This document shows positions 5,899 through 47,151 of a stretch of 64,000 bases of DNA, piece by piece. The notes under the pieces were generated by a model. The model worked only from the letters and a program-made list of their open reading frames with translations, was not told the origin of the DNA and did no database searches. The stretch lies in IMG/VR virus record IMGVR_UViG_3300045988_095445; one strand, written 5' to 3'. Both the position numbers and the translations under genes were made by a program. Position 1 is the first letter of the stretch. Every line of letters begins with the position of its first letter. This DNA comes from a virus.

Positions 5899-6174
5899 TT
5901 ATTCCTCACTTAAATTATATCCAATAAGTTCCATACAAGGATTTATTAATCGCAATAATATCTCTACTTCATCAATTACGAATTTTTCCTTCAAATCTCT
6001 ACTTTTTAGAAATTCAGAATAACTAATACAATTTAGTCCAATAATTCCATATTGTTCTGCTTTAATTCTCATTGAGCGTGGATTGCTACATACAAAAATA
6101 GCATCATTATCTTTAGCATATTGCATTAGTTGATAGGTTTTTCCAGTACATCTGTTACCAATAATTCTAAACAT
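5899..6174 (-). CDS. Small P-loop protein (91 aa).
   Basis: GNRCTGKTY Walker A; a GGAGG RBS lies 7 nt upstream; TAATG overlap with the upstream gene. Confidence 0.4.
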   Translation of the reverse strand: MFRIIGNRCTGKTYQLMQYAKDNDAIFVCSNPRSMRIKAEQYGIIGLNCISYSEFLKSRDLKEKFVIDEVEILLRLINPCMELIGYNLSEE

Positions 6175-7085
6175 TAAGACCCTCCGCGAGTAGTATTTAA
6201 ACCAAAATCTTTCGTTTTATAAAACTCAATCCAATAAGTTTCTCTCTCATTTAAATTTTCCCTTAAAACTTCTTCTAAAATCTCAAAGGTAAAATTATGA
6301 ACTCCAGATTTCTACATGGTAGAATATAGTTTATTGGTTGCTTTTCCGTAAGTTAAAGCAGATTTAATATGTTGTCTAAAACGTTCTTTTATATCAACTG
6401 ACTATCCTATATAGGATTTCCCAGTGGTCAAATCAGTTATCCTATAAATCCCACAATATTTAATTGCTTTTGGGAATAACCGAGCTGTTAATATATCATA
6501 AGCTGGTTTATAATACACTTCCCATATTAACTTATCTATGCTTTCTTTTTTGACAAATCTAGGTTGCAACTCACGCAATAATGTAATATCATTTATATCA
6601 ATTTCATCAAGAGCTAAACGATAGTAATCTTGATTAGAGTCAATCTCTTCCTATCTTTGTTGAGCCTAAATATAAGCAAGTTGTTTAGCTTGTAAATCCG
6701 CTAATTTACTGGATTCGATAGAAATTTTATTTGATAAATCTTGACTTTTAGCATCAAAAGTCATAGTAAGCTCATTTTCTTTTTCTTCATAGGATTTTAA
6801 AAGTGCGGAAATGCGAATCTAGTATGCCTCATCAGCTTGCTTTTGTGCATTTTCCCGCATTTCTTCCTAAGATTTTACTAGAGAAGAAAGAATTTCATTT
6901 TCAGAGTATATATTTTCTTTTATATTAGATAATACTTCTCTATTATGTTTTATTTCCTATTCTATCTCTGAGTTTTTCCTCTAATTATCTATATTAACTT
7001 CAATTATTTGATGCTCTTGTTTCTTGAGATAATAGATATAAATTATTAACCCGATTATAGTAATTAATAATAACCCTATAATCAT
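6174..7085 (-). CDS. Transmembrane + coiled-coil protein with a C-terminal GIY-YIG nuclease domain, read through 8 in-frame TAG codons.
   Basis: Single frame from the ATG at 7083-7085 to the TAA at 6174-6176. In-frame TAGs are at 6983, 6959, 6869, 6821, 6668, 6653, 6404 and 6314. The C-terminal domain reads KAIKYCGIYRITDLTTGKSYIG*SVDIKERFRQH...HNFTFEILEEV...EREKYWIEFYKT, a textbook GIY-YIG homing-endonuclease core. The N-terminus MIIGLLLITIIGLIIYIYYL is a transmembrane helix. Confidence 0.55.
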
Positions 7086-8840: not shown

Positions 8841-9046
8841 TATTTATCAAACTCCTTATATTCTTTATATCCAAAGTAAATTCCTATAGGAATGGCATAT
8901 AAAAATAAAAACCAAGGACTAACAGTAAAACATAAGATGATTGGTAAAAATATTGTCATAGCTAAAACGAAGACAAGAAGAATGTCAACTAGTATGAATT
9001 TAATAAGAGTAGAATTTTTTAATTTATCAATCATATAAAACCTCAT
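8840..9046 (-). CDS. Small membrane protein (68 aa).
   Basis: Two hydrophobic helices. Confidence 0.3.
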   Translation of the reverse strand: MRFYMIDKLKNSTLIKFILVDILLVFVLAMTIFLPIILCFTVSPWFLFLYAIPIGIYFGYKEYKEFDK

Positions 9047-9126
9047 TTTTCTCTTTATATAAATATATTATAATAATAAAAAAGAAAAATCAACTAAAGA
9101 TAAGAGTGGTTTTACCACTCTTATCT

Positions 9127-11493
9127 TTAAATCTTGGCTACTGAAATAATCTTATCATTATTTTTTATCATTATATTTCCCATAGAAATTCTTGATAGCT
9201 TGGGAAAATCTTTTACACTAACGACAATAGAACTCTTATTACCAGAAATTAAAATATCATTATCATCAGACACCAATTCTGCTCCGACAACTGTTCCTTT
9301 GTAACATGATACTCCTTTGCCACCGCGGTTTTGTTTATTAAACTCTTTTAGCTCAATTTTCTTTCCAAGACCATCTTCTGAAATAATAGCAAGGTAATCT
9401 GCATTATTGCTTATTGGTAATGCAGCGATAATACTATCATCATCGGATATATTCATTCCTTTTACTCCTTGCGCGGTTCTAGAAGAAATTGGCATTTCCG
9501 CAGTATTAAATCTTATAGTCATTCCATTTTTAGTAACAAGTATCATTTCCTCTTGATTTATAAAAGTTACTGCGGCGAGTTCATCACCATCTTTTAACTT
9601 AATTGATACAATTCCAGTTCTCTTCATTGCGTCATATTCTTCCAGAGGAACTTTTTTGACTATTCCTTTTTTAGTAGCAAAGAATATAAACTTCTTATTT
9701 GTATCTCTTGTTAAAGTAGTATATGCCATAGGAGTTTCATTATCTTCAAAAGTAATCAAAGTAGATAAGGGTACGCCGATAGAATTGTTATTTCCTTCTG
9801 GAATATTATCCACGAGCAGTCTATACATCTTTCCTTTTGATGAAAATATCATCAAAGTATCTTGTGTATTTGTAGCAGAAGAAAATGCTATAATGTCATT
9901 AATTTTCATTCCAGTAGTATTTCTTTTTTGAGGTTTAAAGGCTTTTTTCGCAATTCTTTTTACTGTGCCTTTACTAGAAATAATAACAACGCAATCTTCT
10001 GGCTCTATAACTACTTGTTCTTTCTCTTGTTTAGGGATTTCTGTATTAATAAGTTTTGTGCGGCGAGCATCTCCATATGTATCTTTAAGTTCGGTAATAA
10101 GTTTAATTAACTTATTATTCCTTACTTCTTTATTATTTAACACCTCATTACACTTAGCTATAAATTCTATTTTTTCGTTTAGCTCGTCAACTAACTCTTG
10201 TTTATCAATGCGAGTTAATTTGCCAAGTTTCATATCTAAAATAGCTTTAGCTTGAATATCATCTACATCTAAGAAAGCAATTAGTTCTTTCTTTGCTTCA
10301 TTAGTGTTATTTGCACTTTTAATAATTTTGATAACTTCATCAATCTTATCAACAGCAGCGATCAATCCCTCAAGAATATGTTTGCGGGCCTCAGCTTTTT
10401 CCTTATCAAACTGAGTTGCTTTAATTAATACATCTTCCTGATGGCTGACATAAATCTGTAATAAATCTATCATTGAGCAAAGTCTAGGAGTTCCATTTAC
10501 AATATAATTCATATTATAAGAAATAGAAGATTGTAAGTCAGTTAATACAAATAATTGATTTAATGCTTTAGATACAGAAACACCATCTTTTACATAAAAT
10601 ACAAGCCTATTATTACCGATATTTGATTCATCATCAAAATCTTCAATAATCTCACTTAATGTTTCAATATTCTTCTCTATTTGCTCTTTTATTTTATTTC
10701 GATAGGTTCTATAAGGAATACTTGTAAAGATAATTTTTTGCCCATCAATCTCATAGTCGCCTTGAATTTTCAAAGAGATTGTGGATTTTCCCGTTTTAAA
10801 CGCGCTCTTTACATCCTTGATATTTAGAACAGTTCCGCCAAGAGGGAAATCTGGGCCAGGAATATAGGTTAGTAATTCATCAATAGTGAGCGAGCCTTTT
10901 TGAATTAGAGCAATTGCTGCATTACATACTTCTGTTAAATTATGTGGAGCGCTATTATGGGCCATGGAAATACCAATGGCTTGTCTTCCATTGCAAATAG
11001 CATTTGGAAAAAGGGCTGGTAAAATCACTGGCTCCATAAATTCTCCATTATACGTTTCTTTAATTGGAACTACATTTTTCTTGTAATCATTCATCATTAT
11101 ATCAGCAAATAGTGAAGGTTTTGCCTCTGTATAACGAGAAGAAGAAAACATATCATTATTTTCTTGAGTTCCTAATTGTCCTTGTCCTGTAATAAGAGGA
11201 TAACGCATTAAAAATGGTTGCGCCATCTTTCGAAGAACACCATAGCAAGCAATATCGCCATGAAAGTAAGAGGTGGCTAGAGTAGAACCAACAATAGCAT
11301 TACACTTTTTGGTCTTACTCTTATTATTCATCTTTAAATAATCTTCCATAGTCCAAATGATTTTTCTTTGCGCGCTTAACAGCCCATCCTCCGCCGCAGG
11401 AATGGCTCTATCAGTTAAAACCTCTTCTGCATATGTTAAGAATGTGTTTTTTGCTTCATCAAGAATATCTACTTCTGTAATTAAACTACTCAT
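9127..11493 (-). CDS. Type IIA DNA topoisomerase A subunit (GyrA/ParC/T4 gp52-like).
   Basis: YFHGDIACYGVLRKMAQPFLMRYPLITGQGQLGTQ matches the GyrA active-site region; 788 aa with no in-frame stop. Confidence 0.8.
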   Translation of the reverse strand: MSSLITEVDILDEAKNTFLTYAEEVLTDRAIPAAEDGLLSAQRKIIWTMEDYLKMNNKSKTKKCNAIVGSTLATSYFHGDIACYGVLRKMAQPFLMRYPLITGQGQLGTQENNDMFSSSRYTEAKPSLFADIMMNDYKKNVVPIKETYNGEFMEPVILPALFPNAICNGRQAIGISMAHNSAPHNLTEVCNAAIALIQKGSLTIDELLTYIPGPDFPLGGTVLNIKDVKSAFKTGKSTISLKIQGDYEIDGQKIIFTSIPYRTYRNKIKEQIEKNIETLSEIIEDFDDESNIGNNRLVFYVKDGVSVSKALNQLFVLTDLQSSISYNMNYIVNGTPRLCSMIDLLQIYVSHQEDVLIKATQFDKEKAEARKHILEGLIAAVDKIDEVIKIIKSANNTNEAKKELIAFLDVDDIQAKAILDMKLGKLTRIDKQELVDELNEKIEFIAKCNEVLNNKEVRNNKLIKLITELKDTYGDARRTKLINTEIPKQEKEQVVIEPEDCVVIISSKGTVKRIAKKAFKPQKRNTTGMKINDIIAFSSATNTQDTLMIFSSKGKMYRLLVDNIPEGNNNSIGVPLSTLITFEDNETPMAYTTLTRDTNKKFIFFATKKGIVKKVPLEEYDAMKRTGIVSIKLKDGDELAAVTFINQEEMILVTKNGMTIRFNTAEMPISSRTAQGVKGMNISDDDSIIAALPISNNADYLAIISEDGLGKKIELKEFNKQNRGGKGVSCYKGTVVGAELVSDDNDILISGNKSSIVVSVKDFPKLSRISMGNIMIKNNDKIISVAKI

Positions 11494-11505
11494 TTATACA
11501 CTTCC

Positions 11506-13395
11506 TCATTCAAAATTAAATCCTAATTCTTCTGCATTATCATAGATATATTGCTTGCGGGGTTCAACTGCGCTTCCCATCAAAATTTCGAGCAATTCTG
11601 TGGTAGCTTTGGCATCACTAATAGTAATGCGTTTATATCTTTCATTCATAAAACATACTTTTTGCAGATCCTCTGGATTTAATTCTCCCAATCCCTTAGC
11701 TCTAAGTAAATCATAACTGCCGCTATGATTCTTTTTCCACTCTTCAAGTTCATTGTCACTATAACAGTAATACTCTTTTCCTTTTTGTCGAATAATATAT
11801 AATGGAGTTACAGCTCTATATAACTTACCAGCTTCAATAAGAGGACGCATATATGTATAGAAGAAAGTAATAAGCATTAATTCAATATCTGCACCATCAC
11901 TATCTGCATCGGCCGTGATTACAACTTTATCAACGGTCAATTTACTAATATCAAAATCTTTACCAAAACCTCCACCAAGGATCCTAATAATATCAGACAT
12001 TTCTTGGTTAGAAAGCAGCTTATCAATAGCAGTCTTTAATGGGCTGATAATCTTTCCTCGCAACATATAAATGCAATCAGTTTTAGGATTTCGTGCTTCT
12101 ACTGCGGAAGCTCCTGCTGATAGTCCCTCAACAAGCAAGAGATTACGATCTTTAGGACTACGATTTCCGCAATCAATAAACTTATTACTAAGTTTCATTT
12201 TTGCCTTTAATCCGGTTTCTTTCTTTGTCTTTATTCCTCTTGCTGCCTCTCTTGCTTTACGAGCTGCCTCTCTTGCTTTTCTAGCATTTAATGCTTTATC
12301 CGCGATACTTTTAATTTCTTTTTCATTTGTTGTGAACCAATATTGCAGCTCTTCTGCTATTGCTTGTGTAAAAGGTTTCATATCTAGTTTTGTGACACGA
12401 GATTTTACTTGAGCATCATATCCAATATTTGGTGCTGTAATATTAAAAACAAGATACATTCCTTCTTGGCAATCATCTCCAGAGAGATTTTCATCCTTAT
12501 CTTTTAGCCACCCTTTTTCTCGGAAGAATTTATTAAATTCTCTTGTTAAAAGGGTTTTAATTTGCGTAATATGCGGACCTGCTTCTGTTAAACCAGTATT
12601 TACATATGGAACAATCGTAGAAGAGTAGTTATTTGTGTAAGTTAGAGCTAAATCCAACTTATTTTTACCTTCGGAAAAATTAATTGAGAAACGATTTTTC
12701 AGAATCTCTTTTCCCTTAACGCCTTCATCTAACAAATCCATAAGACCATTCTTAGAGAAGAACTCTGTCTTTTTTCCATTATCATCTAGTTTGATAGTTA
12801 GCCCCGGACAAAGACATACAATAGTTTTAAATAAGGAGTTTAATGCTTTTGCGTCTGGCTTTGGATCAGTAAAAAACTCTTCACTTGCAATCCAGAAAAC
12901 AGAAGTTCCATGAACATTTTTATCAACCTTACAAGAATCTCTAGATTCAAAAATGCCCTCTTTGAATCTTACTTGTTCTCCTTCTCCATCTCTATATGTC
13001 CACACAGTTAATTCATGACTAAGATAAGTTGCAAGTTTGCTACCAATACCAAAACTACCAAGAGAAGTTCCCTCATAAGTTCCATCTTCTCTATATTTAC
13101 CACTGGTATTTAATACACTAAATGCGGCTTCCAAAATTGTTTTCCCATCTTCTCTAAAAGAATTAGGAATAAATCCTTGACCATGATCGCTGACAGACAC
13201 TCTGGCACCATTAATTTGTACGTCTATTTCATTACCGTGACCCAATCTAAATTCATCTACCGAGTTTGATACAATCTCTACTACTAATTGAGTAGAAGTT
13301 GATGTATCTCCGCAATATACCCCAGGTCTTAAACGAGTAAATTCTAGAGGACTTAATGACTCAATACTTTTTTCATTATATAACTTATCTGACAT
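11506..13395 (-). CDS. Type IIA DNA topoisomerase B subunit (GyrB-like ATPase + Toprim).
   Basis: GHK ATPase N-terminus; Toprim LLLVEGLSAGAS and DADSDG motifs; 629 aa. Confidence 0.8.
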   Translation of the reverse strand: MSDKLYNEKSIESLSPLEFTRLRPGVYCGDTSTSTQLVVEIVSNSVDEFRLGHGNEIDVQINGARVSVSDHGQGFIPNSFREDGKTILEAAFSVLNTSGKYREDGTYEGTSLGSFGIGSKLATYLSHELTVWTYRDGEGEQVRFKEGIFESRDSCKVDKNVHGTSVFWIASEEFFTDPKPDAKALNSLFKTIVCLCPGLTIKLDDNGKKTEFFSKNGLMDLLDEGVKGKEILKNRFSINFSEGKNKLDLALTYTNNYSSTIVPYVNTGLTEAGPHITQIKTLLTREFNKFFREKGWLKDKDENLSGDDCQEGMYLVFNITAPNIGYDAQVKSRVTKLDMKPFTQAIAEELQYWFTTNEKEIKSIADKALNARKAREAARKAREAARGIKTKKETGLKAKMKLSNKFIDCGNRSPKDRNLLLVEGLSAGASAVEARNPKTDCIYMLRGKIISPLKTAIDKLLSNQEMSDIIRILGGGFGKDFDISKLTVDKVVITADADSDGADIELMLITFFYTYMRPLIEAGKLYRAVTPLYIIRQKGKEYYCYSDNELEEWKKNHSGSYDLLRAKGLGELNPEDLQKVCFMNERYKRITISDAKATTELLEILMGSAVEPRKQYIYDNAEELGFNFE

Positions 13396-13860
13396 TTATT
13401 CACCATACTCTCTTAAAATTTCTTCTGAGGTCATTCTTCCAGTAGCTAATGCATCAGCTAGTTCATTATAAAGCTCTCCGTCATGACCTTTGATTTTTCT
13501 TAAATCAATTCTATAGTCTTTGCTTAACATATCATAGGTCTTAATTAAATCAAGATTTTCTAGCTTTTTACCTCCAGCTCTTGTCCAACCATTAGCTTTC
13601 CATCCTTTAATCCATGAAGTAAAACTATTTACACAATAAGCGGAATCGCTATAAACAATAGGGGCAAAGAAATCTCCATCTTTAGCTCCATAGTTTTCAA
13701 GAGCATAAATTATAGCAGACATTTCCATCCTATTATTAGTAGTTTTAGGTTCACGCTCTGCATAAGCAGCTATAACGATACCATTATCATCAACTACTAT
13801 AACCCCAAAACCTCCTGGGCCGGGATTTCCTAAGCAAGAACCATCAGTATATATAGTCAT
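13396..13860 (-). CDS. rnhA: Ribonuclease H.
   Basis: MTIYTDGSCLGNPGPGG...SDSAYCVNS...HDGELYNELAD is the RNase HI catalytic signature. Confidence 0.8.
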   Translation of the reverse strand: MTIYTDGSCLGNPGPGGFGVIVVDDNGIVIAAYAEREPKTTNNRMEMSAIIYALENYGAKDGDFFAPIVYSDSAYCVNSFTSWIKGWKANGWTRAGGKKLENLDLIKTYDMLSKDYRIDLRKIKGHDGELYNELADALATGRMTSEEILREYGE

Positions 13861-13986
13861 AAATACAAATGCTCCTTTATTTTTATTCTTTTTATTTTCT
13901 TAATATATAATATCATATATTTTAAGAAAAATCAAACTACAAACAAATAAAGGCTTAATGAGTATTTAACTCATTAAGCCTTTATA

Positions 13987-14322
13987 TTAAATAGGACCAT
14001 CGAGATCAATGGGAATATCATTAGAGGCTGAAAAATCTTCTGCGGGGATGTTATATGCAGAATTGAATTCAGTTTCTTTTAAAGCTAGGTCATAAGTAAT
14101 GCCGCCCTTTTTGTGATCTGATTTAGCCATTGCTAAATAAAAAGAACAAACTACTCCGTGGGCGCTCCATGGTAGACCAACAAGAGCACTAATCCATGGA
14201 AGGGTTCCTAAATATCCCATATAAACACACATAAATGCCAAAAGGATACCTGACACAGTCACGACCCATAATAACATACGAATATCATTTATAAGTTTTT
14301 TGGAAAATTCTAATTTTTTCAT
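13987..14322 (-). CDS. Membrane protein, putative holin.
   Basis: 111 aa with 2-3 predicted transmembrane segments, directly downstream of the endolysin; ATGA overlap with the upstream stop. Confidence 0.35.
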   Translation of the reverse strand: MKKLEFSKKLINDIRMLLWVVTVSGILLAFMCVYMGYLGTLPWISALVGLPWSAHGVVCSFYLAMAKSDHKKGGITYDLALKETEFNSAYNIPAEDFSASNDIPIDLDGPI

Positions 14323-15197
14323 TTTAAACCCAGCTTTTCAGCCAATCTTCTTAACATAGTTACAGTTTCTAATCTAGTGCAGAATTTATTTGGCATCATT
14401 CTTCCAGCACTGTCTCCAGCCATAATCCCATTCGCTTTAGCCCATTCAAGATTATCGGTGCCCCAAGTTTCTTTTTCATTAGCTTTATTAGTAAGCCAAG
14501 TATTCATAAGTTCAGCGAATTTCTCGTCAGTCATATCTTCATCATCCTCCTAGATATTTGACATTAAATTATAAACATCTGTTCTTGCGGTTTCTATGCT
14601 TTTCCCAAATTTTGGAAACCAATGGTTTACATCTGCATGATTAGATCCTAATCCTAGCTTGTGACTATCAGCATGACATAAAATAGTCGGAACGGTGATA
14701 CCATTTAAAGTAGTGGTTCCCAATGGATTTATGTTATACATTTTACATAAATAAGCAGTAATTTGACAAGCCTCTTCATAAATTTTGTTAAAATAATTTG
14801 CATCATTTAATCCATCTTCGCAAATTTCAAACTGAATCCATCCATTATTACAAGAACCTTTAGACCCAGAACCGCATCCCCAAGGACGATAATTCCATGG
14901 CATTGTCTATACTGTTGTTACTGTTCCATCAGCCAATTTACCAATCCAACAGTTTAATCCAGCTTGAACAGATATATGATTCCAGTCATTCTTGCTAGTA
15001 TTTTTTCCTAATTTATTTATTAAACTGGTGTAGTTAGGATCATTATCGCTTGGCTATACATATCTTTTTAAATTAGGATTATTTGCACCAGTACTATGCC
15101 ATAAGATTCCTTTAACTTGCATGGTGCGTGTTTGTTTATAGCAAGTGCTATTTGTCATCATACATTGAAGTGGTTTATTGCTATCGCTATATTTCAT
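14319..15197 (-). CDS. Endolysin: N-acetylmuramoyl-L-alanine amidase (amidase_2/PGRP-like) fused through an in-frame TAG to a C-terminal SLH-like cell-wall-binding domain.
   Basis: QVKGILWHSTGANNPN amidase_2 start; ...ILCHADSHKLGLGSNHADVNHWFPKFG. TAG at 14907-14909 and at 14550-14552. The C-terminus WAKANGIMAGDSAGRMMPNKFCTRLETVTMLRRL matches the SLH consensus. The ATG at 15195-15197 has a GGAGG RBS. As I read the bases, the frame is locally discontinuous between 15055 and 15125, consistent with one missing and one extra base. Confidence 0.5.
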
Positions 15198-15280
15198 TTT
15201 ATTACCTCCTTCAATTACATTTGAAATGTTAGCAAATTTATTATAATACTATTGACCATAATTAGCTCTCTTTTGTTGCA

Positions 15281-15318
15281 TAGAAAAACTCTAGTCTGAA
15301 GGTCTTTCAAACTAGAGT
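15281..15318 (-). terminator. Rho-independent terminator (actctagt...actagagt, then a T-run on the minus strand).
   Basis: 8 bp inverted repeat followed by TTTTTCTATGC on the minus strand. Confidence 0.45.
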
Positions 15319-15730
15319 AATACTGCGGTAGAGGCTTCTGTGACAGAAGTGGCAGAAATCAAAATTTTAACTAAACTAGAAAAACTTGTAATTAACTCCT
15401 AATATAAAAAATCTAATTGAGTATTTAAATCTCCAATGGATTTACCTCGACTTTGACAGAACTAAAGCAAATTTTGTTTTCTGCTCCAAAATGTCCATTG
15501 AGCCAATCCATATCCCGCCCCATCTTTTACAAAGTTTTTATACCTTCCATCATCAACTGCAGAGGTATATCCTGCGTCGGTCATTTTTAATTTTTTTTCA
15601 TAGGTGTTCTATAAGTTAATAGAATTAAGACCACTTTCGGCATAAAGATTACCCATTAAACCGGCAATTCCGCAATCACTAAAACCTTTGCCTTTAAAGT
15701 ATTTCCAAATAATTTGAGCATTAGTCATTT

Positions 15731-16585
15731 TTATTTTTTTGTAATGAAAGAGCTATATCCAGCAGATTTTAATTTATCTTTTAGTCTTTCTGCATTTAAT
15801 TTCACAGAGAAAGCACCTAATTGAACTTTATAAAAAATTCCTACTTTCTTGACATACCCGCTAAATCCTTTCTCTTCCAATTCCTTTAACATATTCTCTG
15901 CATTGGTTTTAGATAGAAATGCTCCTACTTGAACTCTGTAAAGAACTACCTCTTGTTCTTTCTTAAGATATACACACATTACATTATCAACTGGTCTTGC
16001 ATAAATTTGAGAAGTTTTTCTTTTCCCATCTATTAGTAATCTAGTAGATCCGCCTCCATCTAAATTAATAGCATATTCTACTTTCAATTCAAGAAAAATT
16101 TGCTATAGGGCAGCATAAACAAGACTTGGAGAATCTACGGTTACAATATAATAATTATTTTTATTCCATCCAATACAAGTCCTGCGGGCTTTATAATCTA
16201 ATTCTTTTCCATCTGTTATAACTACTTTTTTGCTATCTACAATTAATGCAGGATAAGCTGCGATAAAATCTCTAGCGGTTTCATAATCTTTTAATGTTGT
16301 ATATATAAGTGTTTTATTGCCGCTAATTGCAACTCCATGACGAAAATCAGACTAAATAACAGTTCCTTCGTCTTTATAACTAAAGCAAGTGTTGCCATTA
16401 TTCATGGCAAAGAAACCTCCATTAGTAATAATATCTGGTTTAGTAGCCTGTCTTTTATAATAAGCATCTGGAGTTTCCGTCGGTTGATTGCATAAGGCAA
16501 AGTCAATTTTTTCAATGTCTGTGAAGGGAATTGTTACAATTTGAACATAAGGATAGAGACTATGTTTTTTGATACTATATCCCAT
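15731..16585 (-). CDS. Cell-wall-associated phosphodiester glycosidase-domain protein with two C-terminal SPOR domains. Read through in-frame TAGs at 16352-16354 and 16103-16105.
   Basis: Track ORFs 16352..16585 and 15731..16087 share a frame; the linking segment translates cleanly. The hallmark is AINLDGGGSTRL. Two SPOR-like repeats (YRVQVGAFLSKTNAENMLKEL... and YKVQLGAFSVKLNAERL). AGGAG RBS before the ATG at 16585. Confidence 0.55.
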
Positions 16586-16638
16586 ACTTTATCTCCTTTC
16601 AATAATAAAACCCAATCTCTAAAGAGATTGGGTTTAAA

Positions 16639-17895
16639 TCAAATATATTCAGCTATTTGCGCGATTCTAGATCTATAAATATTACGGAGTTCTACTTCAC
16701 CGTATATATCTTGTCCTCTATAAACTTTAGAAACTCGTTTCATTCCATTGTTTATGCCAGCAAAATGAATATCATCAACTTGAGTTTTTTCATCGCCGTC
16801 AATGATACAAATGCAATCCTCTCCAATTCTTTGAAGAGCCAACTTAATAAGTGTACGATCTAAATTCTGAGCTTCAGAAATGTATATACCTGCTCTTGAA
16901 CCATTGGTATCATATCCTCTAATATCCGACATTGGTAGTAAAATTAATTTTTCTTCGCTCATAAGATGTTCTACTCCCGTTCTACCGCTGAATTTAGATA
17001 TTAAGAGATTGCCGATTTGAGAGTCTAATAGTTTTTCATCTCTTGTTCCAGGTAGAAATCCTAATCTTGCACTATTGGCTGTGGCAACGGTATTGCAAAA
17101 TACAATAATATGATCAAGTTCGCCTTTTTCTAGCTTAGACATTAAATAGGCTAAGCTAATAAATGTTTTACCAGATCCCGCAGGCCCTTTAATCAAGGTA
17201 ATTTTATTATTAGATAAGCTATCAAAAAGTAATTTTTGGTAAATATCATTTTGATATGGCTTTACTTTTCCAAACCAATTTGAATTAAAGTCATTATAAT
17301 TTAGATATCTATGGTCGTTTCCAGTCCATACTCTCAAATCTACCACTTTATCATCCATATCTCTTATAATGAGATATTCTCCAACATGAAGATTAAAATG
17401 ATTCAGCTCTGGTTTTTGATAAAATTCTGTAAGATTCTCATCACTAGCAGAAATTTCTTTATATCCACTATAATTATCAGTTTCTTCTGGAATACTTTCT
17501 ATCATGTCAGACCCGAAGAATAGATTTGCAATATGCTTTAGGCTTAAATCATTTGTTACAAAGATGACTTCATCCACTCTTTTATTATTATTATACCAAA
17601 TTGCATCAGACAGTATCCTTGTATCATCCGTTACGTCAAGACACATTTCTTTAATATAGTCTTCAAAATCTGTTTGATGGATTACTACTTCATACATATC
17701 AGGGTGCGTTTCAAATAAATGTAGCAATAATCTAGCTGAATATTTTATATCTGAATCTTTATTGTTAGCGGTTTTAATTCTTTCCAATTCCTGAAAAGTA
17801 ATTGATGATACAATAAATTTTTCATCATTATTGAATAAGCCTTCTCCGCATATCAATAGTGAACAAGTATCATAGAACCGAATATCTTTATTCAT
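16639..17895 (-). CDS. phoH: PhoH-like ATPase (PIN + PhoH domains).
   Basis: GPAGSGKTF Walker A; 418 aa; N-terminal PIN-like region. Confidence 0.7.
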   Translation of the reverse strand: MNKDIRFYDTCSLLICGEGLFNNDEKFIVSSITFQELERIKTANNKDSDIKYSARLLLHLFETHPDMYEVVIHQTDFEDYIKEMCLDVTDDTRILSDAIWYNNNKRVDEVIFVTNDLSLKHIANLFFGSDMIESIPEETDNYSGYKEISASDENLTEFYQKPELNHFNLHVGEYLIIRDMDDKVVDLRVWTGNDHRYLNYNDFNSNWFGKVKPYQNDIYQKLLFDSLSNNKITLIKGPAGSGKTFISLAYLMSKLEKGELDHIIVFCNTVATANSARLGFLPGTRDEKLLDSQIGNLLISKFSGRTGVEHLMSEEKLILLPMSDIRGYDTNGSRAGIYISEAQNLDRTLIKLALQRIGEDCICIIDGDEKTQVDDIHFAGINNGMKRVSKVYRGQDIYGEVELRNIYRSRIAQIAEYI

Positions 17896-18163
17896 AATTT
17901 TCCTCTTCCTCTTCTGATGTAGTAGTAGTAAATCCTATAACTTTTACACTCTTATTTATAGAGTTATTTAATTTATCTATTTTAGCATTACACTCTACTA
18001 TTTTTATACTTAATCTCGCTTTTAAGAGTTCTACAAAGACAGAAATAAGCTCTTTCAAGTCCAAAATGATTGGAATACCCAACGATCCAATAAGAATACC
18101 TATAAGTAAATATAACAAAATGTACCACCTTCTTCTTTATATATAACAAAAAAAGAAGGAGAT

Positions 18164-18625
18164 TTAATTATTATTGCCCTGACGAAATTTTCTAACTATC
18201 GAGAGCGCCTTAGTTTGATTTTTAATGTAAGTTTTTAAGTTAGTTTCTTCTGTTTTTAATGCTTTTTCAAGTGCGGAAATTCGAGCTGAGCAGCGTCCAA
18301 TTGCATAATAAAAGTTTCCAGTAGGGTCAACTTCCGCAGGACTTAATCGCTCATATTTTGTTGCCTCTTGATAATAGTCATATCTATATTGTAATTCTTT
18401 GCGAGTTTTTTTCATTTCATATTGCATAGCATTTATTCTTGCTTTTGATAAAGCGATAGTTTTACCTACCTTTTCAGAAAAAAAATCTTTATCGCTTTCC
18501 GCTAACTTGGCTCGTCCGCTAAAGATTTTTCCATTATAATTAATTCCAACAATACATATGCCAGATTTTTCATTAACTAGCTATGTAATTGTTGGAGCTT
18601 TATATATAGCACTAATAACACTCAT
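18164..18625 (-). CDS. Hypothetical protein with one in-frame TAG (18581-18583).
   Basis: ATG at 18623-18625 with a GGAGA RBS; MSVISAIYKAPTIT*LVNEKSG... continues into track ORF 18164..18427 in the same frame. Confidence 0.4.
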
Positions 18626-18706
18626 TATTGTTTTCTCCTAATCTTTTAAATCTTTATATTAAAATTATATCATTTATTTATAGAAAAATCCAATTTTAAG
18701 GATTTT

Positions 18707-18758
18707 GAAAGAAAAATTTGGTGAGCCTGCGCGAACGGAAACTCGGAGCAAAACGAGG
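18707..18758. promoter_or_regulatory. Conserved about 52 nt GC-rich element, copy 1.
   Basis: GAAAGAAAAATTTGGTGAGCCTGCGCGAACGGAAACTCGGAGCAAAACGAGG, near-identical to 43648-43699. Both copies lie just downstream of a minus-strand terminator hairpin. Confidence 0.5.
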
Positions 18759-18766
18759 CTAGTGGC

Positions 18767-18795
18767 AAAAGAAAACCCTCCAGGTTAAAAACCTG
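18767..18795 (-). terminator. Rho-independent terminator (ccctccagg...cctggaggg).
   Basis: 9 bp perfect stem followed by TTTTCTTTT on the minus strand. Confidence 0.55.
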
Positions 18796-19092
18796 GAGGG
18801 TTAAAATTAAGGGGTAATCAGAATAGAAGAATCTGTTCCTGTCATAGTAGAAGGCATCTGGCCATTCCACTGTTCATACTTAATCTTTTCAATCAACTCG
18901 GGAGTAAGAGAAGCAGCGATTTTGGAGTTAGCTTCTGCTTCCGCCTGGGCAGCAATCTCAAGAGCATCAGCCTCAGCCTGCGCCTTAATCAAAGCCTGCT
19001 CAACCTGAATTTCAGCATCTTCCTAAATGTGAAATTTAGCAAGAACCATATTGCAACAAGAGCAAGTACAACTAAAATCCAGAAAATAGGAT

Positions 19093-19656
19093 TCATAGCA
19101 TCTCGATACACTCCTTTACCTTCAAGTTCATATCTTCAATGACCTTATCCAAAGATACTGGATAACAGTCATGAGAATCAACTCCTACATGATACATATA
19201 AGGTCTATCTTCAAAGAAATTAGTCTGCTGATGCGTATGACCATATAGATTAATGATCATCTGCTTGAGACTTTCTTTCTCAAGATTTCCAGTCAAAGTG
19301 GGGAAATGAGACATATAGAAATGATATTTCCTGTACTTAAGAGCAATAGCCCAAGCAGTTTCTACCACATTAGGAAGCTCGGCGTACATTTTCTTACGGC
19401 TATCCGTACAGTGGTTTCCAAAAGCAATGTGGAGTTTTCCATTCATAGAGGAAATAAACTCCTTGTTTCTCTCAAGACTATCTGTTCCACCGAGACAGAG
19501 ATCTCCAAGAACATATACATCATCTTCTGGAGTGACAATAGAGTTATGCCTCTCAACAAGAGCAATATTCATCTCTTCAACGGAGTTGAATCCACGAGGC
19601 TTATAGACAAACTCACGGTCATGTGAGAAGTGCCAATCCGAGGTTACGAAAATCAT
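19093..19656 (-). CDS. Metallophosphoesterase (calcineurin-like).
   Basis: FVTSDWHFSHD, GDLCLGG and GNHC motifs; 187 aa. Confidence 0.55.
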   Translation of the reverse strand: MIFVTSDWHFSHDREFVYKPRGFNSVEEMNIALVERHNSIVTPEDDVYVLGDLCLGGTDSLERNKEFISSMNGKLHIAFGNHCTDSRKKMYAELPNVVETAWAIALKYRKYHFYMSHFPTLTGNLEKESLKQMIINLYGHTHQQTNFFEDRPYMYHVGVDSHDCYPVSLDKVIEDMNLKVKECIEML

Positions 19657-39077: not shown

Positions 39078-40415
39078 TTATATTACTGTGCTAGAACTTC
39101 CACAATTAAAAATAATTGTAGCGGTCTGAGTTAGATCATCAATCTTTCCACTTTTAGCAACAGATGCTAAGTCTGCATCATTAGCTTTTTTAGTAAGAGC
39201 CGCAGGTAACCCGTTGATATTCTCCATGGTAGGTTGAGCACGAGTTACGCTAATGATACCATCAGTCTCAGACACCGCAGTTACAAATTGATTTTCTACG
39301 GCTGAATCTTCTTTATCTAAAGTGTTAACTTTAGAATCTGCATAGCTTTTGGCCTCTTGCTTAGCGGAATCAATTTTTCCCTGAGTTATCTCTGCTGTAT
39401 CATACGCTGAAAGATCTACCATTCCAGCTAAAACATCCCATTTAAATTCTTCTTCTCCCACATCTATACAAACAATATTAGTACCAGCAGGATAACTCTT
39501 CCCGGAACCTTCTACGAAATCGTCTGTAGTAGTGAATTTATCAAGAATGTTATAAACCTTTCCTTCTTCTGTTGCAGTTAGTTCTGGTAGAGAAGCGAAT
39601 GCAATAGATCCTCCGGCTTTATAAGTAGAGGAAATTCTAGCAGCAATTTGCTAATCAGTATAGGTTTTAGCTTCATCATAAGCACCTTTAATAGTAGTGG
39701 AAGAACCACTTCCTTCACCAATTAACTCTGTTTTTGCTGCCCCAATTTTAGAATCTACTTCTGTGGTTTTTGCATATTCATTGATTTTTAGAGCTGCAAT
39801 TTTTTCATCGGTGGCATTAGCAGCTTCCTTGATAGCTTCGCTTTTTGCTGTATCTGCACTACCAGCTGCGTCATAAGCACCAGATTCAGTATAAGCTGCT
39901 GATCCAAGTCCATGAACTTTTACTTCTTTTTCAGAACCAGTAACTCCAAATTTTACAGTACCATTAGTAGTCCCTTCGACTAAATTATAAGTGGGAGCGG
40001 TCAGAGCAATAGTGCTTACATCTGTCCAAGATCCGCCAGTTTTTGGTCTAGATTGAAGCTTAAAGCCCATATCTCCATTTTTAACAATCTAATATTGTGT
40101 ATCGGTATCTTGAATTTTTTCTCCAATAAAATCTTCAAGTCCGGTAATTTCAGTCGCTGCATAAGTTGGTTTACTTGCCGCTTTAGCCCAAGTATAAACA
40201 TCTGCGGCCGTCCCGCTTACCCATTTTAAAGTTTTAAAATCTGATTCACCGTTACCGATTTTTAACAAATAGGTAGGCTCATTTTGAGCAACTCCAGTTT
40301 CAACAGGAACTTCAACAACCGCCATTTCTCCTTTTAGAAGAACGGGGTTATTGGTATCCCAATTTTTATAAGTATCATATTTTAATTGGATTCTTGTATT
40401 AAAAGTTGTAGCCAT
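39078..40415 (-). CDS. Tail fibre / receptor-binding protein (445 codons) read through in-frame TAGs at 40089-40091 and 39651-39653.
   Basis: Track ORFs 40089..40415, 39651..40070 and 39078..39461 share one frame with TAG-only separators. The segment linking the last two translates as QIAARISSTYKAGGSIAFASLPELTATEEGKVYNILDKFTTTDDFVEGSGKSYPAGTNIVCID, paralogous to the neighbouring gene. GGAGG RBS; TAA stop. Confidence 0.6.
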
Positions 40416-40440
40416 TATTTATCTTCCTCCAAGTTGATTT

Positions 40441-41613
40441 TTATTCACTAACAGTAGCATCTCCACCATTTAAGATAAGCTCTGTACCAGGAGTCTAAGT
40501 AATTTTTTTTATATTTATGTTATTGACAATCATAGTTCCATCGCCTGTAATAGAAACGCCGTTTTCACTAGTGGTGCTTTTTACTACACCAAGAGCCTCT
40601 GCTGTAGCAATAGGAATAGTAACTGCGCCATCGCTAACCTAAAGAGGAGTAGTTCCTACGGTTATACTCTTAATCTTCTCTGCTAAAGCCGCGGGAAGGC
40701 CAGTAATTTTCTCCTATGCAATCGCTTTTACGCCAAGAGTTTTATTATCAGGATCAATTTCTAATTCATCACTAACTCCTTTGATTTCTGCTAAACCCTA
40801 TAATTTAGCAATTAGAGTATCTTGAACTAAAGATGATCCTTCTACTTTGTCGACTTTATTAGCTAACTTAGTATCTACACTACTTGTAGTTTCGTATCCA
40901 CTTAAATCTACAAATCCCGCGAGAACATCCCATTTGTAAGTTCCAGCATTATCAGTGTCAATACATACTACATTAGTTCCAGCTGGATATTTATTATCGG
41001 CTCCTTCAACGAAGTCTTCAGTAGTGGTGAAAGCATCTATAATATTATATACTTTTCCCTCTTGATCAGCTCCAAGTGTAGGAAGGAAACTAAACATAAT
41101 GGAACCAGCAGGTTTATAAGTTGAACTTATTGCAGTAGCAATTTTTTGGTCAATCTTAGAATCTGCTTCTGTTTTATTATAATAATCATTAAATTTTCCA
41201 TTAATAGAACTATCAGCTGCTTCATAAGCTGCTTTAACTTCCTCAATGGCTGCCCAAAGATTAGAAGCTGTTATTGAACTTTCTTCTTCTTTGGTACCAA
41301 CAGAGGTTTCTAATGCGGAAACTTTTCCTTGAAGCTCTAAAACATCTTCCGTTAAATCACCAGAAGCAGTAGTTGAAGCCAATTTCATTAAATTGCCAGC
41401 AGCATTTTGAATCATATACGCTTCAACTGTATTTTCTTCTTCATTAACTAAGGTAACTACCTAACCAACATATGCTACAGGACTAGATTGAGCATATGTT
41501 GTTAATTCTTCCATATCATACCATACTGAATATTCATCAATAGGGAAAGGATTTCCTCTACGAATACTCAGAGGTAACGCCATATATGCAATATCTTTGT
41601 TAATTACTGCCAT
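40441..41613 (-). CDS. Tail-fibre-like structural protein read through at least 5 in-frame TAGs (41461, 40798, 40714, 40639, 40495).
   Basis: One frame from the ATG at 41611-41613 (GGAGGA RBS) to the TAA at 40441-40443. The central part is track ORF 40798..41415. Confidence 0.5.
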
Positions 41614-41630
41614 TATTTGTTCCTCCTTCC

Positions 41631-42693
41631 TTACTTTCCAATTACAACCTTATGATCCTCAGTTGGATCAATGGAAGCAGGTTGATAAACGAATACATCA
41701 TAAGGAACCGCGGTAAATCCATTTGCTCCTTCTACTTGCACTGGTTCTTGCTTTACATAGCTAGAAGTTACATCTGCGTTCAAACTAGAAGTAATATTAG
41801 CTGCGGTAACTTTAAGCCCAGAAGATTGAGGAACTGCGATAATAATTCTCTTAGTATCACTTTTTGCTTTAATGCTATTAATAGTCATTGCGGCTGCCGC
41901 TTTATTGCTTGCTGTTAAAGAACGAATAATCGCGCTAGTTAAAGGATCTGTAGAATTATTAACTCCATAAAAAATCTAGCGATATCCAGTAATAGCTCCT
42001 GTGCTATTAGACTTAGATCCAGCTTTAATTTGTCCTTCTGCATATTCAGAACCAAGATTTGTAACAGGAATAGCTCCATTCCCATAATTAGCTGTTGCTG
42101 TAATCTTTAAATTAGTAGCATCTTCAACTTGAATTTCAGAGAAAGTTCCAGTAGCTTCTGTTTTTGTTTCTTCATCAAATTGAACGCTCCAACCGGTTGC
42201 TGTAATTCCAGTGTCGGGGCCATATTGATAAGATCCTTTATTTAAAGTTGCAGTATAAGTTGGAGTTACATTAGTGCCCGCTTCATATGCTTTCATTTGG
42301 CTGGAGGAAATACTAACAGAAGGTTGTGTGATAGTAGGATTTTTTTCTTCCGCAAAAGCATCTAGCAGTAATTGATCTAATGTTTTTCCAGTCGCGGGAA
42401 TATTAACAGATCCATCTCCTCCAGGAGTATATTTACCAAAAGTATAGGTAAATGTAAAATCATCATCAAATTTTACAATAGATGAATCAACTTCTACAAT
42501 ATCTTTTCCACCAGAATATTCTAACTAACCCCAAGTGCTTGTTCCATCACCATATTTTACTTTTCCTTTATTCTCGCCATCAGTGGTAAGACAAGCCTCT
42601 CCAACGAGAGGAATAAAGGAGTCCTTAACTGAAGTCCAATTTTCCTCAGTATCATGTCTAAGTTGGATTCTAGTTTTTAATTCATTGGCCATC
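41631..42693 (-). CDS. Tail-fibre-like protein with the conserved N-terminal domain, read through at least 2 in-frame TAGs (one at 41976-41978).
   Basis: MANELKTRIQLRHDTEENW... start; track ORFs 41976..42296 and 41631..41888 are in one frame and joined by a cleanly translating segment. Confidence 0.5.
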
Positions 42694-42719
42694 TTTAAAA
42701 TGCCTCCTTATTTTAGTTT

Positions 42720-43548: not shown

Positions 43549-43647
43549 TATTCTCCTTTCTTAAAGAAGTAGAGAAAATTATCTCTCTTTATACTATATA
43601 ACAATATTGACAAGAGATTTCACATAAATTGTCCAAACCCCATTTTT

Positions 43648-43699
43648 GAAAGAAAAATTTGGTGAGCCTGCGCGAACGGAAACTCAGAGCAGAACGAGG
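43648..43699. promoter_or_regulatory. Conserved about 52 nt GC-rich element, copy 2.
   Basis: GAAAGAAAAATTTGGTGAGCCTGCGCGAACGGAAACTCAGAGCAGAACGAGG; followed at 43706-43742 by a 13 bp terminator hairpin (gaggggctagc...gctagcccctc). Confidence 0.5.
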
Positions 43700-43898: not shown

Positions 43899-43937
43899 AT
43901 ATATAAAGCAGTTTTAAGACTTGCTTAGGTCTTTATA

Positions 43938-47147: not shown

Positions 47148-47151
47148 ATAT

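Follow-up and report, generated by a model that had tools for sequence, protein, structure and literature searches.

The locus lies on the minus strand of a 64,000-nucleotide stretch of viral DNA (IMG/VR record IMGVR_UViG_3300045988_095445), the whole of which is referred to here as the window. It is occupied by one gene, running from 15728 to 14319, that encodes a three-domain endolysin built of Phage_lysozyme2, Amidase_2 and a single SLH domain. The gene, its parts and its surroundings comprise the following features:

13947..16635, minus strand: candidate transcription unit of three genes, with terminator-like hairpins at 16635-16608 and 13985-13947 and a promoter-like site at 16602-16574, predicted by consensus scans only
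15731..16585, minus strand: NAGPA (phosphodiester glycosidase) and SPOR gene upstream of the endolysin, with TAGs at 16354-16352 and 16105-16103
14319..15728, minus strand: full endolysin gene, 469 sense codons, 52.8 kDa with TAG read as Gln, stop codon TGA at 14321-14319
15611-15609, 15464-15462, 15401-15399, 15314-15312, 15293-15291, 15251-15249, 15056-15054, 14909-14907 and 14552-14550, minus strand: the nine in-frame TAGs of the endolysin gene
15234..15722, minus strand: Phage_lysozyme2 (PF18013) catalytic domain, residues 3-165, six TAG codons, Pfam E 4e-35
15195..15209, minus strand: putative internal start site 1 between the catalytic domains, GGAGG at 15209-15205, 7-nt spacer, ATG at 15197-15195
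14670..15125, minus strand: Amidase_2 (PF01510) catalytic domain, residues 202-353 of 469, Pfam E 1.7e-11
14532..14552, minus strand: putative internal start site 2, TAG GAG GAT GAT GAA GAT ATG
14322..14534, minus strand: SLH ORF, 71 codons, 8.1 kDa, TAG-free, an N-terminal helix segment and one SLH domain
13987..14322, minus strand: gene of a hydrophobic 111-residue protein, probably with membrane-spanning segments, no TAG, downstream of the endolysin
37550..37625, minus strand: tRNA-CUA found by ARAGORN, needed to decode the nine TAGs

With TAA and TGA as the only stops, the endolysin frame runs open from ATG 15728 to 14319. A previous reading of the sequence alone (the sequence-only reading) had placed the gene start at ATG 15197, but the frame goes on upstream to ATG 15728, which adds the Phage_lysozyme2 domain and six TAGs. 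Within the ORF 15197-14319 the TAG reported at 14909-14907 is present, whereas the number of TAGs had to be corrected from two to three, the one at 15056-15054 having been overlooked. ATG 15728 starts two bases after the TAA of the upstream gene and no Shine-Dalgarno (SD) sequence was found before it (the preceding bases are cattacaaaaaaataaaa), which fits an excess production of the short isoforms considered below. Standard-code relatives (L028, L030, L031, L036, L040, L062 and L072) possess the fused frame without any stop codon, and the cultured phages FP_Lagaffe (527 aa) and Fontainebleau (470 aa) each have a single annotated CDS in which an amidase domain comes after this lysozyme domain. 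The relatives were recovered at the protein level only; a megablast search of window positions 9000-20000 against the phage collection gave no match. Relatives occur in IMG sample 3300045988.

The Phage_lysozyme2 part also matched the endolysin family phrog_20388 (E 7.5e-65). The Amidase_2 domain scored 45 bits against a threshold of 26, contains the TAGs 15056-15054 and 14909-14907, and its profile matched the PlyL-type amidases 1YB0 (E 1.4e-4) and 2AR3 as well as endolysin PHROGs. The SLH ORF extends from ATG 14534-14532 to TGA 14321-14319. The 71-residue ORF alone scored 23.7 bits with the SLH profile (PF00395, cut-off 20.8), and within the full protein the score was 19.8 bits, slightly under the cut-off; the Pfam match was found in six of nine relatives, with a best E of 2.5e-8. 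Profile comparison pointed to Sap SLH1 (3PYW/6BT4, E 1e-3) and to the single-SLH OmpM stalk 8BZ2. The translation contains ...NLEW...NGIMAG...CTRLE..., to be compared with the conserved Trp, GIIxG and TRAE motifs as defined previously (PMC12285257), and the T and R of the TRLE-type motif are invariant in the 9-sequence SLH alignment. S-layer proteins carry three tandem SLH copies, forming a pseudo-trimer; only one is present here, and in this it is like the single-copy SLH domains, for which separate chains come together as a trimer. The order proposed in the sequence-only reading, an amidase domain upstream and an SLH-like domain downstream of the junction, is upheld by these Pfam scores. All three Pfam domains are contained in one 469-codon frame, so that two catalytic domains and a binding domain are joined as in endolysins with a Type I internal translation start site (iTSS). 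The SLH ORF encodes the wall-binding module with which the full protein ends, and presumably this module also exists as a free short isoform, which would start with (formyl-)Met-Thr-Asp-Glu-Lys.

The ATG of the 111-residue protein gene overlaps the endolysin TGA (ATGA), and its product is 65% identical over 79 residues to that of a Dulem virus 33 gene in the same 4-nt-overlap position after the endolysin. No significant Pfam or PHROG match was obtained for this protein and it is a holin candidate by position only. The NAGPA-SPOR gene, the endolysin gene and the gene of the 111-residue protein probably belong to one transcription unit, as judged from the predicted signals. A further terminator-like hairpin, at 15318-15288 in the lysozyme domain, was considered as a conserved feature and rejected, being degraded in L008 and absent from L010 and L011.

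Like the reading frame and the domains, the alignment of most TAGs with Gln in relatives is documented. The window encodes a tRNA with the anticodon CUA, as expected of the amber suppressor of genetic code 15. The label 'Pyl' given to it by ARAGORN derives from the anticodon alone; it shares the acceptor stem GCGGA/TCCGC, T72, G73 and CCA with the tRNA-Gln(UUG) of the phage, a resemblance that makes it a putative Gln tRNA. Seven of the nine endolysin TAGs are located at positions where some or most relatives carry Gln. In a 29-sequence alignment Gln was the commonest residue opposite TAG (211 cells, the next residue accounting for 46) and one site was TAG/Gln polymorphic inside the closest clade. 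In Dulem virus 33 each of the three sites that are TAG in the 292-codon amidase-SLH part is occupied by CAG (Gln), and the amidase/SLH junction of this virus reads ATA CAG GAG GAT GAT GAT ATG ACA. In crAss-like phages the decoding of TAG as Gln has been confirmed by metaproteomics (PMC9523058).

The endolysin codon counts TAG:CAA:CAG were 9:13:1. The junction TAG fills a slot whose final AG forms the beginning of AGGAGG. An xAG codon for Gln can only be CAG or TAG, and the gene uses TAG nine times and CAG once. The peptide predicted across the junction with Gln at the TAG is ...NIQEDDEDMTDEK.... Across the listed ORFs of the window 45 TAGs were counted, and in the endolysin gene nine. The fraction of Gln codons represented by TAG was highest in the tail-fibre-like genes (0.45 and 0.56), the GIY-YIG endonuclease-like gene (0.40) and the endolysin gene (0.39), whereas the gyrase-like, RNase H-like and PhoH genes had none and the DnaB-like helicase gene had two TAGs; the recoded stops thus cluster in genes of late, structural or lysis function. 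The apparent avoidance of TAG in the SLH ORF was discarded as evidence, the ORF being devoid of any Gln codon and the counts in other recoded relatives too small.

At the amidase/SLH junction the TAG 14552-14550 indeed lies inside TAGGAGG (14552-14546) on the minus strand, 11 nt before the in-frame ATG opening the SLH domain, as had been noticed from the sequence alone. AGGAGG (14551-14546), the 11-nt spacer ATGATGAAGAT and ATG 14534-14532 occupy the linker after Amidase_2, the location typical of a Type II iTSS. The spacing of 11 nt is at the long edge in comparison with the 6-10 nt usual in this phage, and relatives mostly have 8. Of 95 distinct SLH-type genes, 68 have a perfect GGAGG at the junction, 4-12 nt ahead of an in-frame ATG, GTG or TTG. 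In a junction set of 70 genes, whose GC content ranges from 32 to 71%, GGAGG with a start codon was present at the junction in 56, in comparison to 0-1 of 70 in each of four control windows of equal size; out of frame the figure was 1-6 of 70. Pinto et al. recognise such starts by their recurrence at one relative position in the majority of cluster members, and the site recurs in this way here. The aligned start column contains ATG 60, GTG 17 and TTG 4 times among 87, and every Val there is encoded by GTG. What exceeds chance in these comparisons is the conservation of GGAGG and the start codon at the junction in relatives, and not the TAG itself. The junction ribosome-binding site and ATG are real in the sense of strong conservation, and the wall-binding module is probably also made alone.

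The codon in the slot occupied here by TAG was counted in 60 genes preselected for GGAGG and having the NNG GAG GNN register: GAG 26, ATG 11, TAG 7, AAG 7, CTG 4 and CAG 2. Elsewhere in the genes with this register Glu is encoded by GAG and GAA in the proportion 708:550. The acidic run E-D-D-E-D may be kept for protein reasons, and GAG-GAx then gives GGAGG easily in GC-rich genomes. TAGGAGG as such was rejected as an over-represented motif (4 in the window versus 6.1 expected). An internal promoter before the SLH ORF was likewise rejected: a sigma-70-like sequence at 14596-14568 matches 10 of 12 positions, but the region gives 20 matches versus 18.2 in shuffled sequences. One subfamily with a shorter single-SLH tail (NatCom_20922, L121-L131 and L144) has no internal start, so free SLH chains are not obligatory for single-SLH endolysins.

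The lysozyme/amidase junction carries the second element, placed as in Type I iTSS. GGAGG 4-12 nt before the ATG of site 1 was found in 27 of 29 distinct fused relatives and in none of 201 controls, which were other in-frame start codons in the upstream domains of the relatives. The motif encodes Gly-Gly in some relatives and Lys-Glu-Glu in others. Translation from 15197 would give a 292-residue, 32.9 kDa amidase-SLH isoform with three TAGs still to decode. Only 4 of the 71 coding-strand GGAGGs in the window lie deeper than 60 codons within an ORF and are followed by an in-frame start, and two of the four are these junctions. Both SD-start elements are conserved at the nucleotide level across relatives of 32-71% GC and under both genetic codes.

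In the sequence-only reading the junction TAG had been taken for a dedicated switch, with amidase and SLH made separately early in infection and fused late by the tRNA-CUA, so that lysis would be timed. The TAG, the SD and the in-frame ATG are all present, the endolysin TAG/Gln ratio is among the highest in the window, and for recoded phages a bias of recoded stops toward lysis genes has been described (Borges et al., 10.1101/2021.08.26.457843). Read-through into one fused protein is corroborated by the tRNA-CUA in the window and by the standard-code relatives, which at this place have one uninterrupted ORF and not a real stop with independent genes. The separate production of the two domains in the absence of suppression does not hold, however, as two further TAGs lie in the amidase part (codons 48 and 97 of 292). 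Eight TAGs in total precede the junction in the gene, so no intact catalytic domain would be made without suppression: the 117-codon piece from 14903 to 14553 is devoid of the first third of the Amidase_2 domain and only the TAG-free SLH module could be made. The junction TAG adds nothing to the effect of these eight. The switch is argued against also by the conservation of the same SD-start element in standard-code relatives with GAG, ATG, AAG, CTG or CAG in the slot, by the GAG found there in the other TAG-recoded relatives (L010-L027 and L086), and by the restriction of TAG in the slot to one shallow clade of 88-99% identity. Programmed stop-codon readthrough involves one specific stop that usually terminates and is now and then read through, adding a domain; here the junction TAG has eight companions, placed inside essential domains, and relatives have sense codons at the site. 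The idea that recoding delays lysis has already been put forward by Borges et al., and nothing singles out the junction TAG. A dedicated switch is thus considered highly doubtful, and the junction TAG (codon 393) is most likely an ordinary Gln sense codon of a TAG-decoding gut phage. Translational coupling nevertheless has as its classic layout a stop codon that overlaps an SD shortly ahead of an ATG, and suppression might be leaky: termination at the junction TAG would free a lysozyme-amidase without binding domain, and re-initiation at the ATG 15 nt on would tune the ratio of full-length to free SLH chains in step with the suppressor level. Host RF1 should compete at every UAG, and all seven distinct sequences of the clade retain the TAG, although the codon before it may be ATC, ATT or GTT. 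The clade is shallow, though, and TAG retention proves little; only ribosomes past eight TAGs get to the junction, relatives achieve the layout without a stop, and no RNA structure that masks or exposes the junction SD, or couples both events, was found (the predicted MFE fold leaves the SD in a loop, and with z 0.48 the region is not more structured than shuffled sequences). Such coupling seems unlikely.

It could also be argued that the GGAGG-ATG elements are unused, as relics of the fusion of formerly separate genes or by-products of Gly-Gly and acidic linker codons, and that only the full-length protein is made. The modules have clearly been shuffled, as in L041, in which a CHAP-like domain replaces the lysozyme domain and the same junction is kept; internal GGAGG-ATG does occur by chance, an example being the NGGFFAMN motif of the neighbouring gene (16420-16405); and predictions based on ribosome-binding sites gave about 15% false positives in portal genes (PMC9430671). 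On the other hand, the elements persist over the whole GC range with the motif encoded by different amino acids, ATG, GTG and TTG interchange in the start column with all 17 Val as GTG, the controls are near zero and coding-strand GGAGG elsewhere in the window is found mostly at gene starts, which makes their being unused improbable. A further reading, that the TAGs are true stops in a decayed pseudogene or between several small separate genes, has in its favour that the standard code breaks the region into short ORFs. It is barely tenable given that in intact relatives most TAGs face a sense residue, usually Gln, that high domain scores extend across the TAGs and the same TAGs recur in independent contigs, and that the tRNA-CUA is accompanied by in-frame TAGs in other conserved genes of the window (tail-fibre-like genes, ATPase, DnaB-like helicase). 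The reading preferred here with good confidence, on the strength of the comparative sequence data, is that of a three-domain endolysin gene with TAG read as Gln, two conserved internal start sites and an ordinary Gln codon at the junction.

So understood, the gene fits the known class of endolysins with internal translation starts, here in a phage in which TAG is recoded to Gln. Internal starts have been predicted in about 50% of the endolysins of phages of Gram-positive bacteria, with heteromers of full-length and binding-domain chains (PMC9430671, PMC12203907, PMC4777826). In the Type II iTSS endolysins CTP1L, CD27L and CS74L of Clostridium phages, Lys170 and LysIME-EF1 of Enterococcus phages, and LysP7951, an SD and a start codon are likewise found in frame in the linker before the wall-binding domain; this domain is therefore produced on its own as well and associates with the full-length chain (PMC4777826, PMC7098653, PMC9430671). 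Those systems differ in having binding domains of non-SLH families and the standard code in host and phage; here the short chain and any heteromer are putative, and a recoded TAG lies inside the SD. The Type I iTSS endolysins Ply2638A (Staphylococcus phage 2638A), Ms6 LysA, LysPollywog and LysJavan488 resemble it in having two catalytic domains, a binding domain and an in-frame start between the catalytic domains, from which an active short isoform is made (PMC12203907, PMC9430671). They have other catalytic pairs and, in the papers cited, one internal start each, whereas the present gene appears to bear both a Type I and a Type II site. FP_Lagaffe (Faecalibacterium phage) and Fontainebleau (Acutalibacter phage), which join Phage_lysozyme2 and amidase in one CDS, have an analogous in-frame GGAGG-ATG after the lysozyme domain; they differ in the standard code, another amidase sequence and other C-terminal domains, with no SLH tail.

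The single SLH domain of SlpA trimerises. The single-SLH OmpM is also a trimer (PMC10628300), and LysBT1 of the Brevibacillus thermoruber prophage PBT1 trimerises through its SLH, a three-prong spindle being predicted (PMC12285257). Compared by description, LysBT1 shares with the present protein Amidase_2 and one C-terminal SLH with W, GIIxG and TRAE motifs, and differs in its length of 261 residues, in lacking a lysozyme domain and in using the standard code, and no internal start has been reported for it. Recombinant LysBT1 forms homotrimers with no short isoform on record (PMC12285257), which counts against a need for free SLH. As for recoding, the TAG- or TGA-recoded gut phages (crAss-like, Agate and others) described by Borges et al. 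(10.1101/2021.08.26.457843) have in-frame recoded stops concentrated in lysis and structural genes and bear a suppressor tRNA, with a proposed role in the delay of late and lysis proteins. The recoded lysis cassettes described there are from another phage lineage and host, and are not known to have been linked to internal starts there.

The gene would thus carry two in-frame internal starts, one per domain junction: Type I at 15197 (AGGAGG-N7-ATG) and Type II at 14534 (AGGAGG-N11-ATG). Three nested products are expected, namely the 52.8 kDa full-length protein, the 32.9 kDa amidase-SLH and the 8.1 kDa SLH alone. If the short products are made, the free SLH module may join a full-length chain and form a three-SLH 'spindle', by analogy with the trimers mentioned above. 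The TAG load may hold back the catalytic isoforms until the suppressor tRNA becomes active, whereas the SLH module, being TAG-free, would escape the delay. A more elaborate joint reading combines a code-dependent ratio of three isoforms, 1:2 SLH-captured heterotrimers and a TAG in the SD that feeds terminating ribosomes into the SLH start. The SLH module would then be translated from its own strong SD whenever mRNA exists and the catalytic isoforms only after the tRNA-CUA becomes active, and pre-made SLH chains would capture full-length chains in 1:2 heterotrimers, completing a three-SLH wall anchor. Taken as a whole, this joint reading is a long shot; if it is true, the recoding of a stop codon and the subunit stoichiometry of a lysis enzyme would be connected.

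Gene callers that use the standard code break this endolysin up, and the 71-residue SLH part would appear among the resulting pieces as a small gene of its own; with TAG decoded as Gln, a single enzyme of three domains emerges. The case shows that a reassigned stop codon can drift into a functional RNA motif without a special role, and calls for caution in reading 'stop codon in RBS' patterns in recoded genomes. The conservation of the start elements is unusually clean and one gene appears to bear both described site types. Internal start sites in endolysins are extended in this way to the large Amidase_2-SLH lysin family, found mostly in Oscillospiraceae genomes, where the wall-binding homologues mostly reside, and in gut phages, and recombinant versions of these enzymes may need the free SLH chain to be co-expressed.

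When TAA and TGA are taken as the only stops, the endolysin frame extends on the minus strand to ATG 15728 and comprises 469 codons with nine TAGs. ATG 15197, taken as the gene start in the sequence-only reading, did not hold as such: the frame is open upstream of it to ATG 15728. Of the ORF described from ATG 15197, the TAGs at 14909-14907 and 14552-14550 are present, but a third at 15056-15054 was overlooked. ATG 15197 is considered internal because relatives encode lysozyme and amidase together in one frame or CDS. The two parts are unbroken in the TAG-free relatives L028, L030, L031, L036, L040, L062 and L072 (loci collected for comparison). In FP_Lagaffe (527 aa) and Fontainebleau (470 aa), both cultured and using the standard code, a single annotated CDS begins with this lysozyme domain and continues with an amidase domain. 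MT835491.1 aligns to residues 2-335 of the endolysin as one piece. Judged by these comparisons, the endolysin is one fused gene. No SD was found before ATG 15728, which lies two bases past the TAA of the upstream NAGPA-SPOR gene; this arrangement suggests that endolysin translation is coupled to that gene.

A Pfam scan of the 469-residue product, with TAG translated as Gln, gave the following domains:
Residues 3-165, Phage_lysozyme2, E 4e-35
Residues 202-353, Amidase_2, E 1.7e-11
Residues 422-454, SLH, 23.7 bits (cut-off 20.8) for the 71-residue ORF alone

Within the full protein the SLH score was 19.8 bits, below the cut-off of 20.8. Both catalytic parts are endolysin in PHROGs. The SLH model was matched by six of nine relatives (best E 2.5e-8), and the tail profile matched SLH repeat 1 of Bacillus anthracis Sap (3PYW, 6BT4; E about 1e-3) and, weakly, the single-SLH stalk of Veillonella OmpM (8BZ2; E 0.12). 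The tail has the Trp, a GIIxG-like GIMAG and a TRAE-like TRLE, motifs defined in PMC12285257.

The phage decodes TAG as sense. The standard-code Dulem virus 33 (PP511792.1) encodes a 'PGrP protein' 44.5 % identical over amidase plus SLH, with CAG at all three TAG positions of this part. An alignment of 29 sequences over the full protein placed Gln opposite TAG far more often than any other residue, and one TAG site was polymorphic (TAG/Gln) inside the closest clade. Among the 31 tRNA genes of the window, which also encodes a tmRNA, one specifies a tRNA with the anticodon CUA (37625-37550, minus strand); the acceptor stem and discriminator of this tRNA resemble those of the phage's own tRNA-Gln(UUG), which is suggestive, though not proof, of Gln identity. 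In-frame TAGs are confined to a subset of genes and are absent from the gyrase-like, RNase H-like, PhoH and many other genes of the window. The TAG share of Gln codons was as follows:
Endolysin, 9/23 (0.39)
Two tail-fibre-like genes, 0.45 and 0.56
6174-7085, minus, GIY-YIG endonuclease-like gene, 0.40
NAGPA-SPOR gene, 0.20

This pattern agrees with published code-15 phages (PMC9523058, PMC10607447). The GIY-YIG gene, of 303 codons with eight in-frame TAGs (40 % of Gln codons), encodes a protein that begins with a hydrophobic segment, continues with a long stretch rich in Glu and Gln and ends in a homing-endonuclease-like domain (PHROG E 1.9e-20); Borges et al. (10.1101/2021.08.26.457843) likewise place a homing endonuclease among preferentially recoded genes.

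The 31 tRNA genes lie in an 18-kb minus-strand stretch (36490-54923) together with the tmRNA (48038-48353, tag DNDYFENYLAA), so that a phage tmRNA co-occurs with an amber suppressor tRNA; tmRNA frees ribosomes stalled on truncated messages. Within about 20 nt past the tRNA-CUA gene, AAGGAGG-N7-ATG opens a 104-codon basic protein (37215-37541, minus) with one TAG of its own, and the suppressor's neighbour therefore depends on the suppressor.

At the junction with the SLH part the minus strand reads, 5'-3', ...TCA AAT ATC TAG GAG GAT GAT GAA GAT ATG ACT GAC GAG..., and the elements as originally described are correct:
14552-14550, minus, TAG in frame in the endolysin gene
14552-14546, minus, heptamer TAGGAGG, containing this TAG
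14534-14532, minus, in-frame ATG, 11 nt after GGAGG
14534 to 14321-14319, minus, 71-codon SLH ORF, ATG to TGA

The comparison set consisted of 80 viral loci and 80 loci from bacterial genomes, the latter mostly Oscillospiraceae MAGs and isolates including Flavonifractor, Pseudoflavonifractor, Intestinimonas, Lawsonibacter and Flintibacter. Essentially every relative with such a tail showed the pattern NNG GAG GAN GAN (GAN), then ATG, GTG or TTG, then ACN. Perfect GGAGG stood 4-12 nt 5' of an in-frame start in 68 of 95 distinct tails, mostly at a spacing of 8 nt, versus 11 nt in the window's group. For 70 genes with enough upstream ORF (GC 32-71 %), a 40-codon junction window was compared with four equal control windows: the element was present in the junction window of 56 genes and in the control windows of 0, 0, 1 and 1, while out-of-frame scans found it in 1 and 6. 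An independent alignment of the start column (n=87) gave ATG 60, GTG 17 and TTG 4, with valine encoded by GTG in 17/17. The conservation at the junction bears the signature of an SD and start codon rather than that of a preferred residue. In one subfamily, the Amidase_2 lysins with a single SLH and a shorter tail (L003, L121, L124, L126, L129, L131 and L144), the helix segment of about 20 residues that elsewhere trails the internal start is missing, and so is this start codon; the two seem to go together.

A comparable element marks the other domain junction:
ATG at 15197, minus, lysozyme/amidase junction, GAA GGA GGT AAT AAA ATG (GGAGG-N7-ATG)

GGAGG preceded the equivalent ATG by 4-12 nt in 27 of 29 distinct fused relatives, against 0/201 other in-frame start codons in their upstream domains. 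Some relatives translate it as Gly-Gly, others as Lys-Glu-Glu, and it is kept where a CHAP-like domain stands in for the lysozyme domain; FP_Lagaffe and Fontainebleau have an analogous in-frame GGAGG-ATG after the lysozyme domain. Of the 71 coding-strand GGAGGs in the window, only 4 occur at a depth of more than 60 codons in an ORF and are followed by an in-frame start; two of these are the endolysin junctions. GGAGG-N8-ATG also occurs in frame at 44315-44328 (minus), deep inside ORF 43938-45116, which is ATPase-like (PHROG 2376) and has two TAGs; the frame is open for 274 codons upstream and 125 downstream, and the site may be an additional internal start or reflect a wrongly placed gene boundary.

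The junction TAG had been proposed as a timing switch for lysis, with amidase and SLH domains made separately when it is not suppressed and fused when it is. Readthrough to a fused protein is borne out by the Gln/CAG alignment and the unbroken relatives, and a separate SLH product from the junction start is probable in view of the conserved SD and start codon. Unsuppressed translation, however, ends after 39 codons from 15728 and after 47 codons from 15197, and no unsuppressed fragment holds a complete catalytic domain. The amidase, already broken by other TAGs, is then never intact; the TAG-free SLH ORF is the only part that can be completed. Therefore the junction TAG cannot separate two domains from a fused enzyme, and any such timing role belongs to the whole TAG set, as hypothesized for recoded lysis genes by Borges et al. 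(10.1101/2021.08.26.457843).

Nor is the junction TAG special in its position. Among 60 genes in the NNG GAG GNN register, selected for GGAGG, the first codon was GAG in 26, ATG in 11, TAG in 7, AAG in 7, CTG in 4, CAG in 2, GGG in 2 and GTG in 1. This slot has to end in G and is xAG in most relatives, extending the SD to AGGAGG; in Dulem virus 33 it is CAG (Gln). TAG is the expected choice for an xAG Gln codon because the endolysin gene uses TAG 9 times and CAG once (CAA 13). Only the window and its near relatives L005-L009 and L085, a shallow clade with 88-99 % identity, have TAG in the slot; in other recoded relatives it is GAG. The TAGGAGG heptamer is not enriched within the window, and a search for RNA structure marking the junction found none. 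The observation is real yet incomplete. L085 (CALCFD010000051.1, 147,780 bp), with a junction 88 % identical and the same TAG, is binned as an 'uncultured Eubacterium sp.' MAG; its size is in the range of related IMG/VR phage contigs (98-148 kb), and the contig probably represents a phage genome swept into a bacterial bin, not an indication of the host.

The endolysin is flanked by the NAGPA-SPOR gene (15731-16585, minus; two TAGs), encoding a NAGPA phosphodiester glycosidase with a SPOR peptidoglycan-binding domain, a second wall-directed protein in the same apparent operon, and by a TAG-free gene. The product of the TAG-free gene, and the terminator-like hairpins and promoter-like site that bracket the three genes, are as follows:
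13987-14322, minus, 111-residue protein with hydrophobic segments, ATG overlapping the endolysin stop (ATGA)
16635-16608 and 13985-13947, terminator-like hairpins
16602-16574, promoter-like site

The 111-residue protein shares 65 % identity over 79 residues with the product of the same-position gene in Dulem virus 33. Neither Pfam nor PHROG gave a significant family match for it; it is a holin candidate, from a family not described so far. The part of the endolysin gene that encodes the lysozyme domain contains a further terminator-like hairpin (15288-15318, minus), with 13 pairs ahead of TTTTTC and two TAG codons at the core of its arms (CTAG being palindromic). L005-L007 and L009 share this hairpin unchanged, L008 has a degraded version and L010 and L011 have none, so that chance is its probable origin.

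The gene most likely belongs with endolysins having in-frame internal translation start sites, which its two junctions fit. In Type I examples (Ply2638A, Ms6 LysA) the start lies between catalytic domains; in Type II examples (CTP1L, CD27L, Lys170, LysIME-EF1, LysP7951) it precedes the binding domain, and the free binding domain joins the full-length chain in assembly (PMC9430671, PMC12203907, PMC4777826). Both types of site seem to be present in this one gene; a limited literature search found no paper describing such a combination.

S-layer proteins carry three SLH domains in tandem. One SLH domain would then be a third of a wall-binding unit, which may be the rationale for the Type II site, and free SLH chains would allow one bulky catalytic chain to complete a trimer. 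The single-SLH proteins OmpM and SlpA and the endolysin LysBT1 do trimerise (PMC12285257, PMC10628300). This inferred rationale is weakened by the shorter-tail single-SLH subfamily devoid of the internal start and by LysBT1 itself, which homotrimerises.

The gene is a new example combining two known things, an internal-start endolysin and a TAG-to-Gln recoded phage. The added interest is modest and lies in the presence of both site types in one gene, the SLH-type tail and the very clean comparative evidence.
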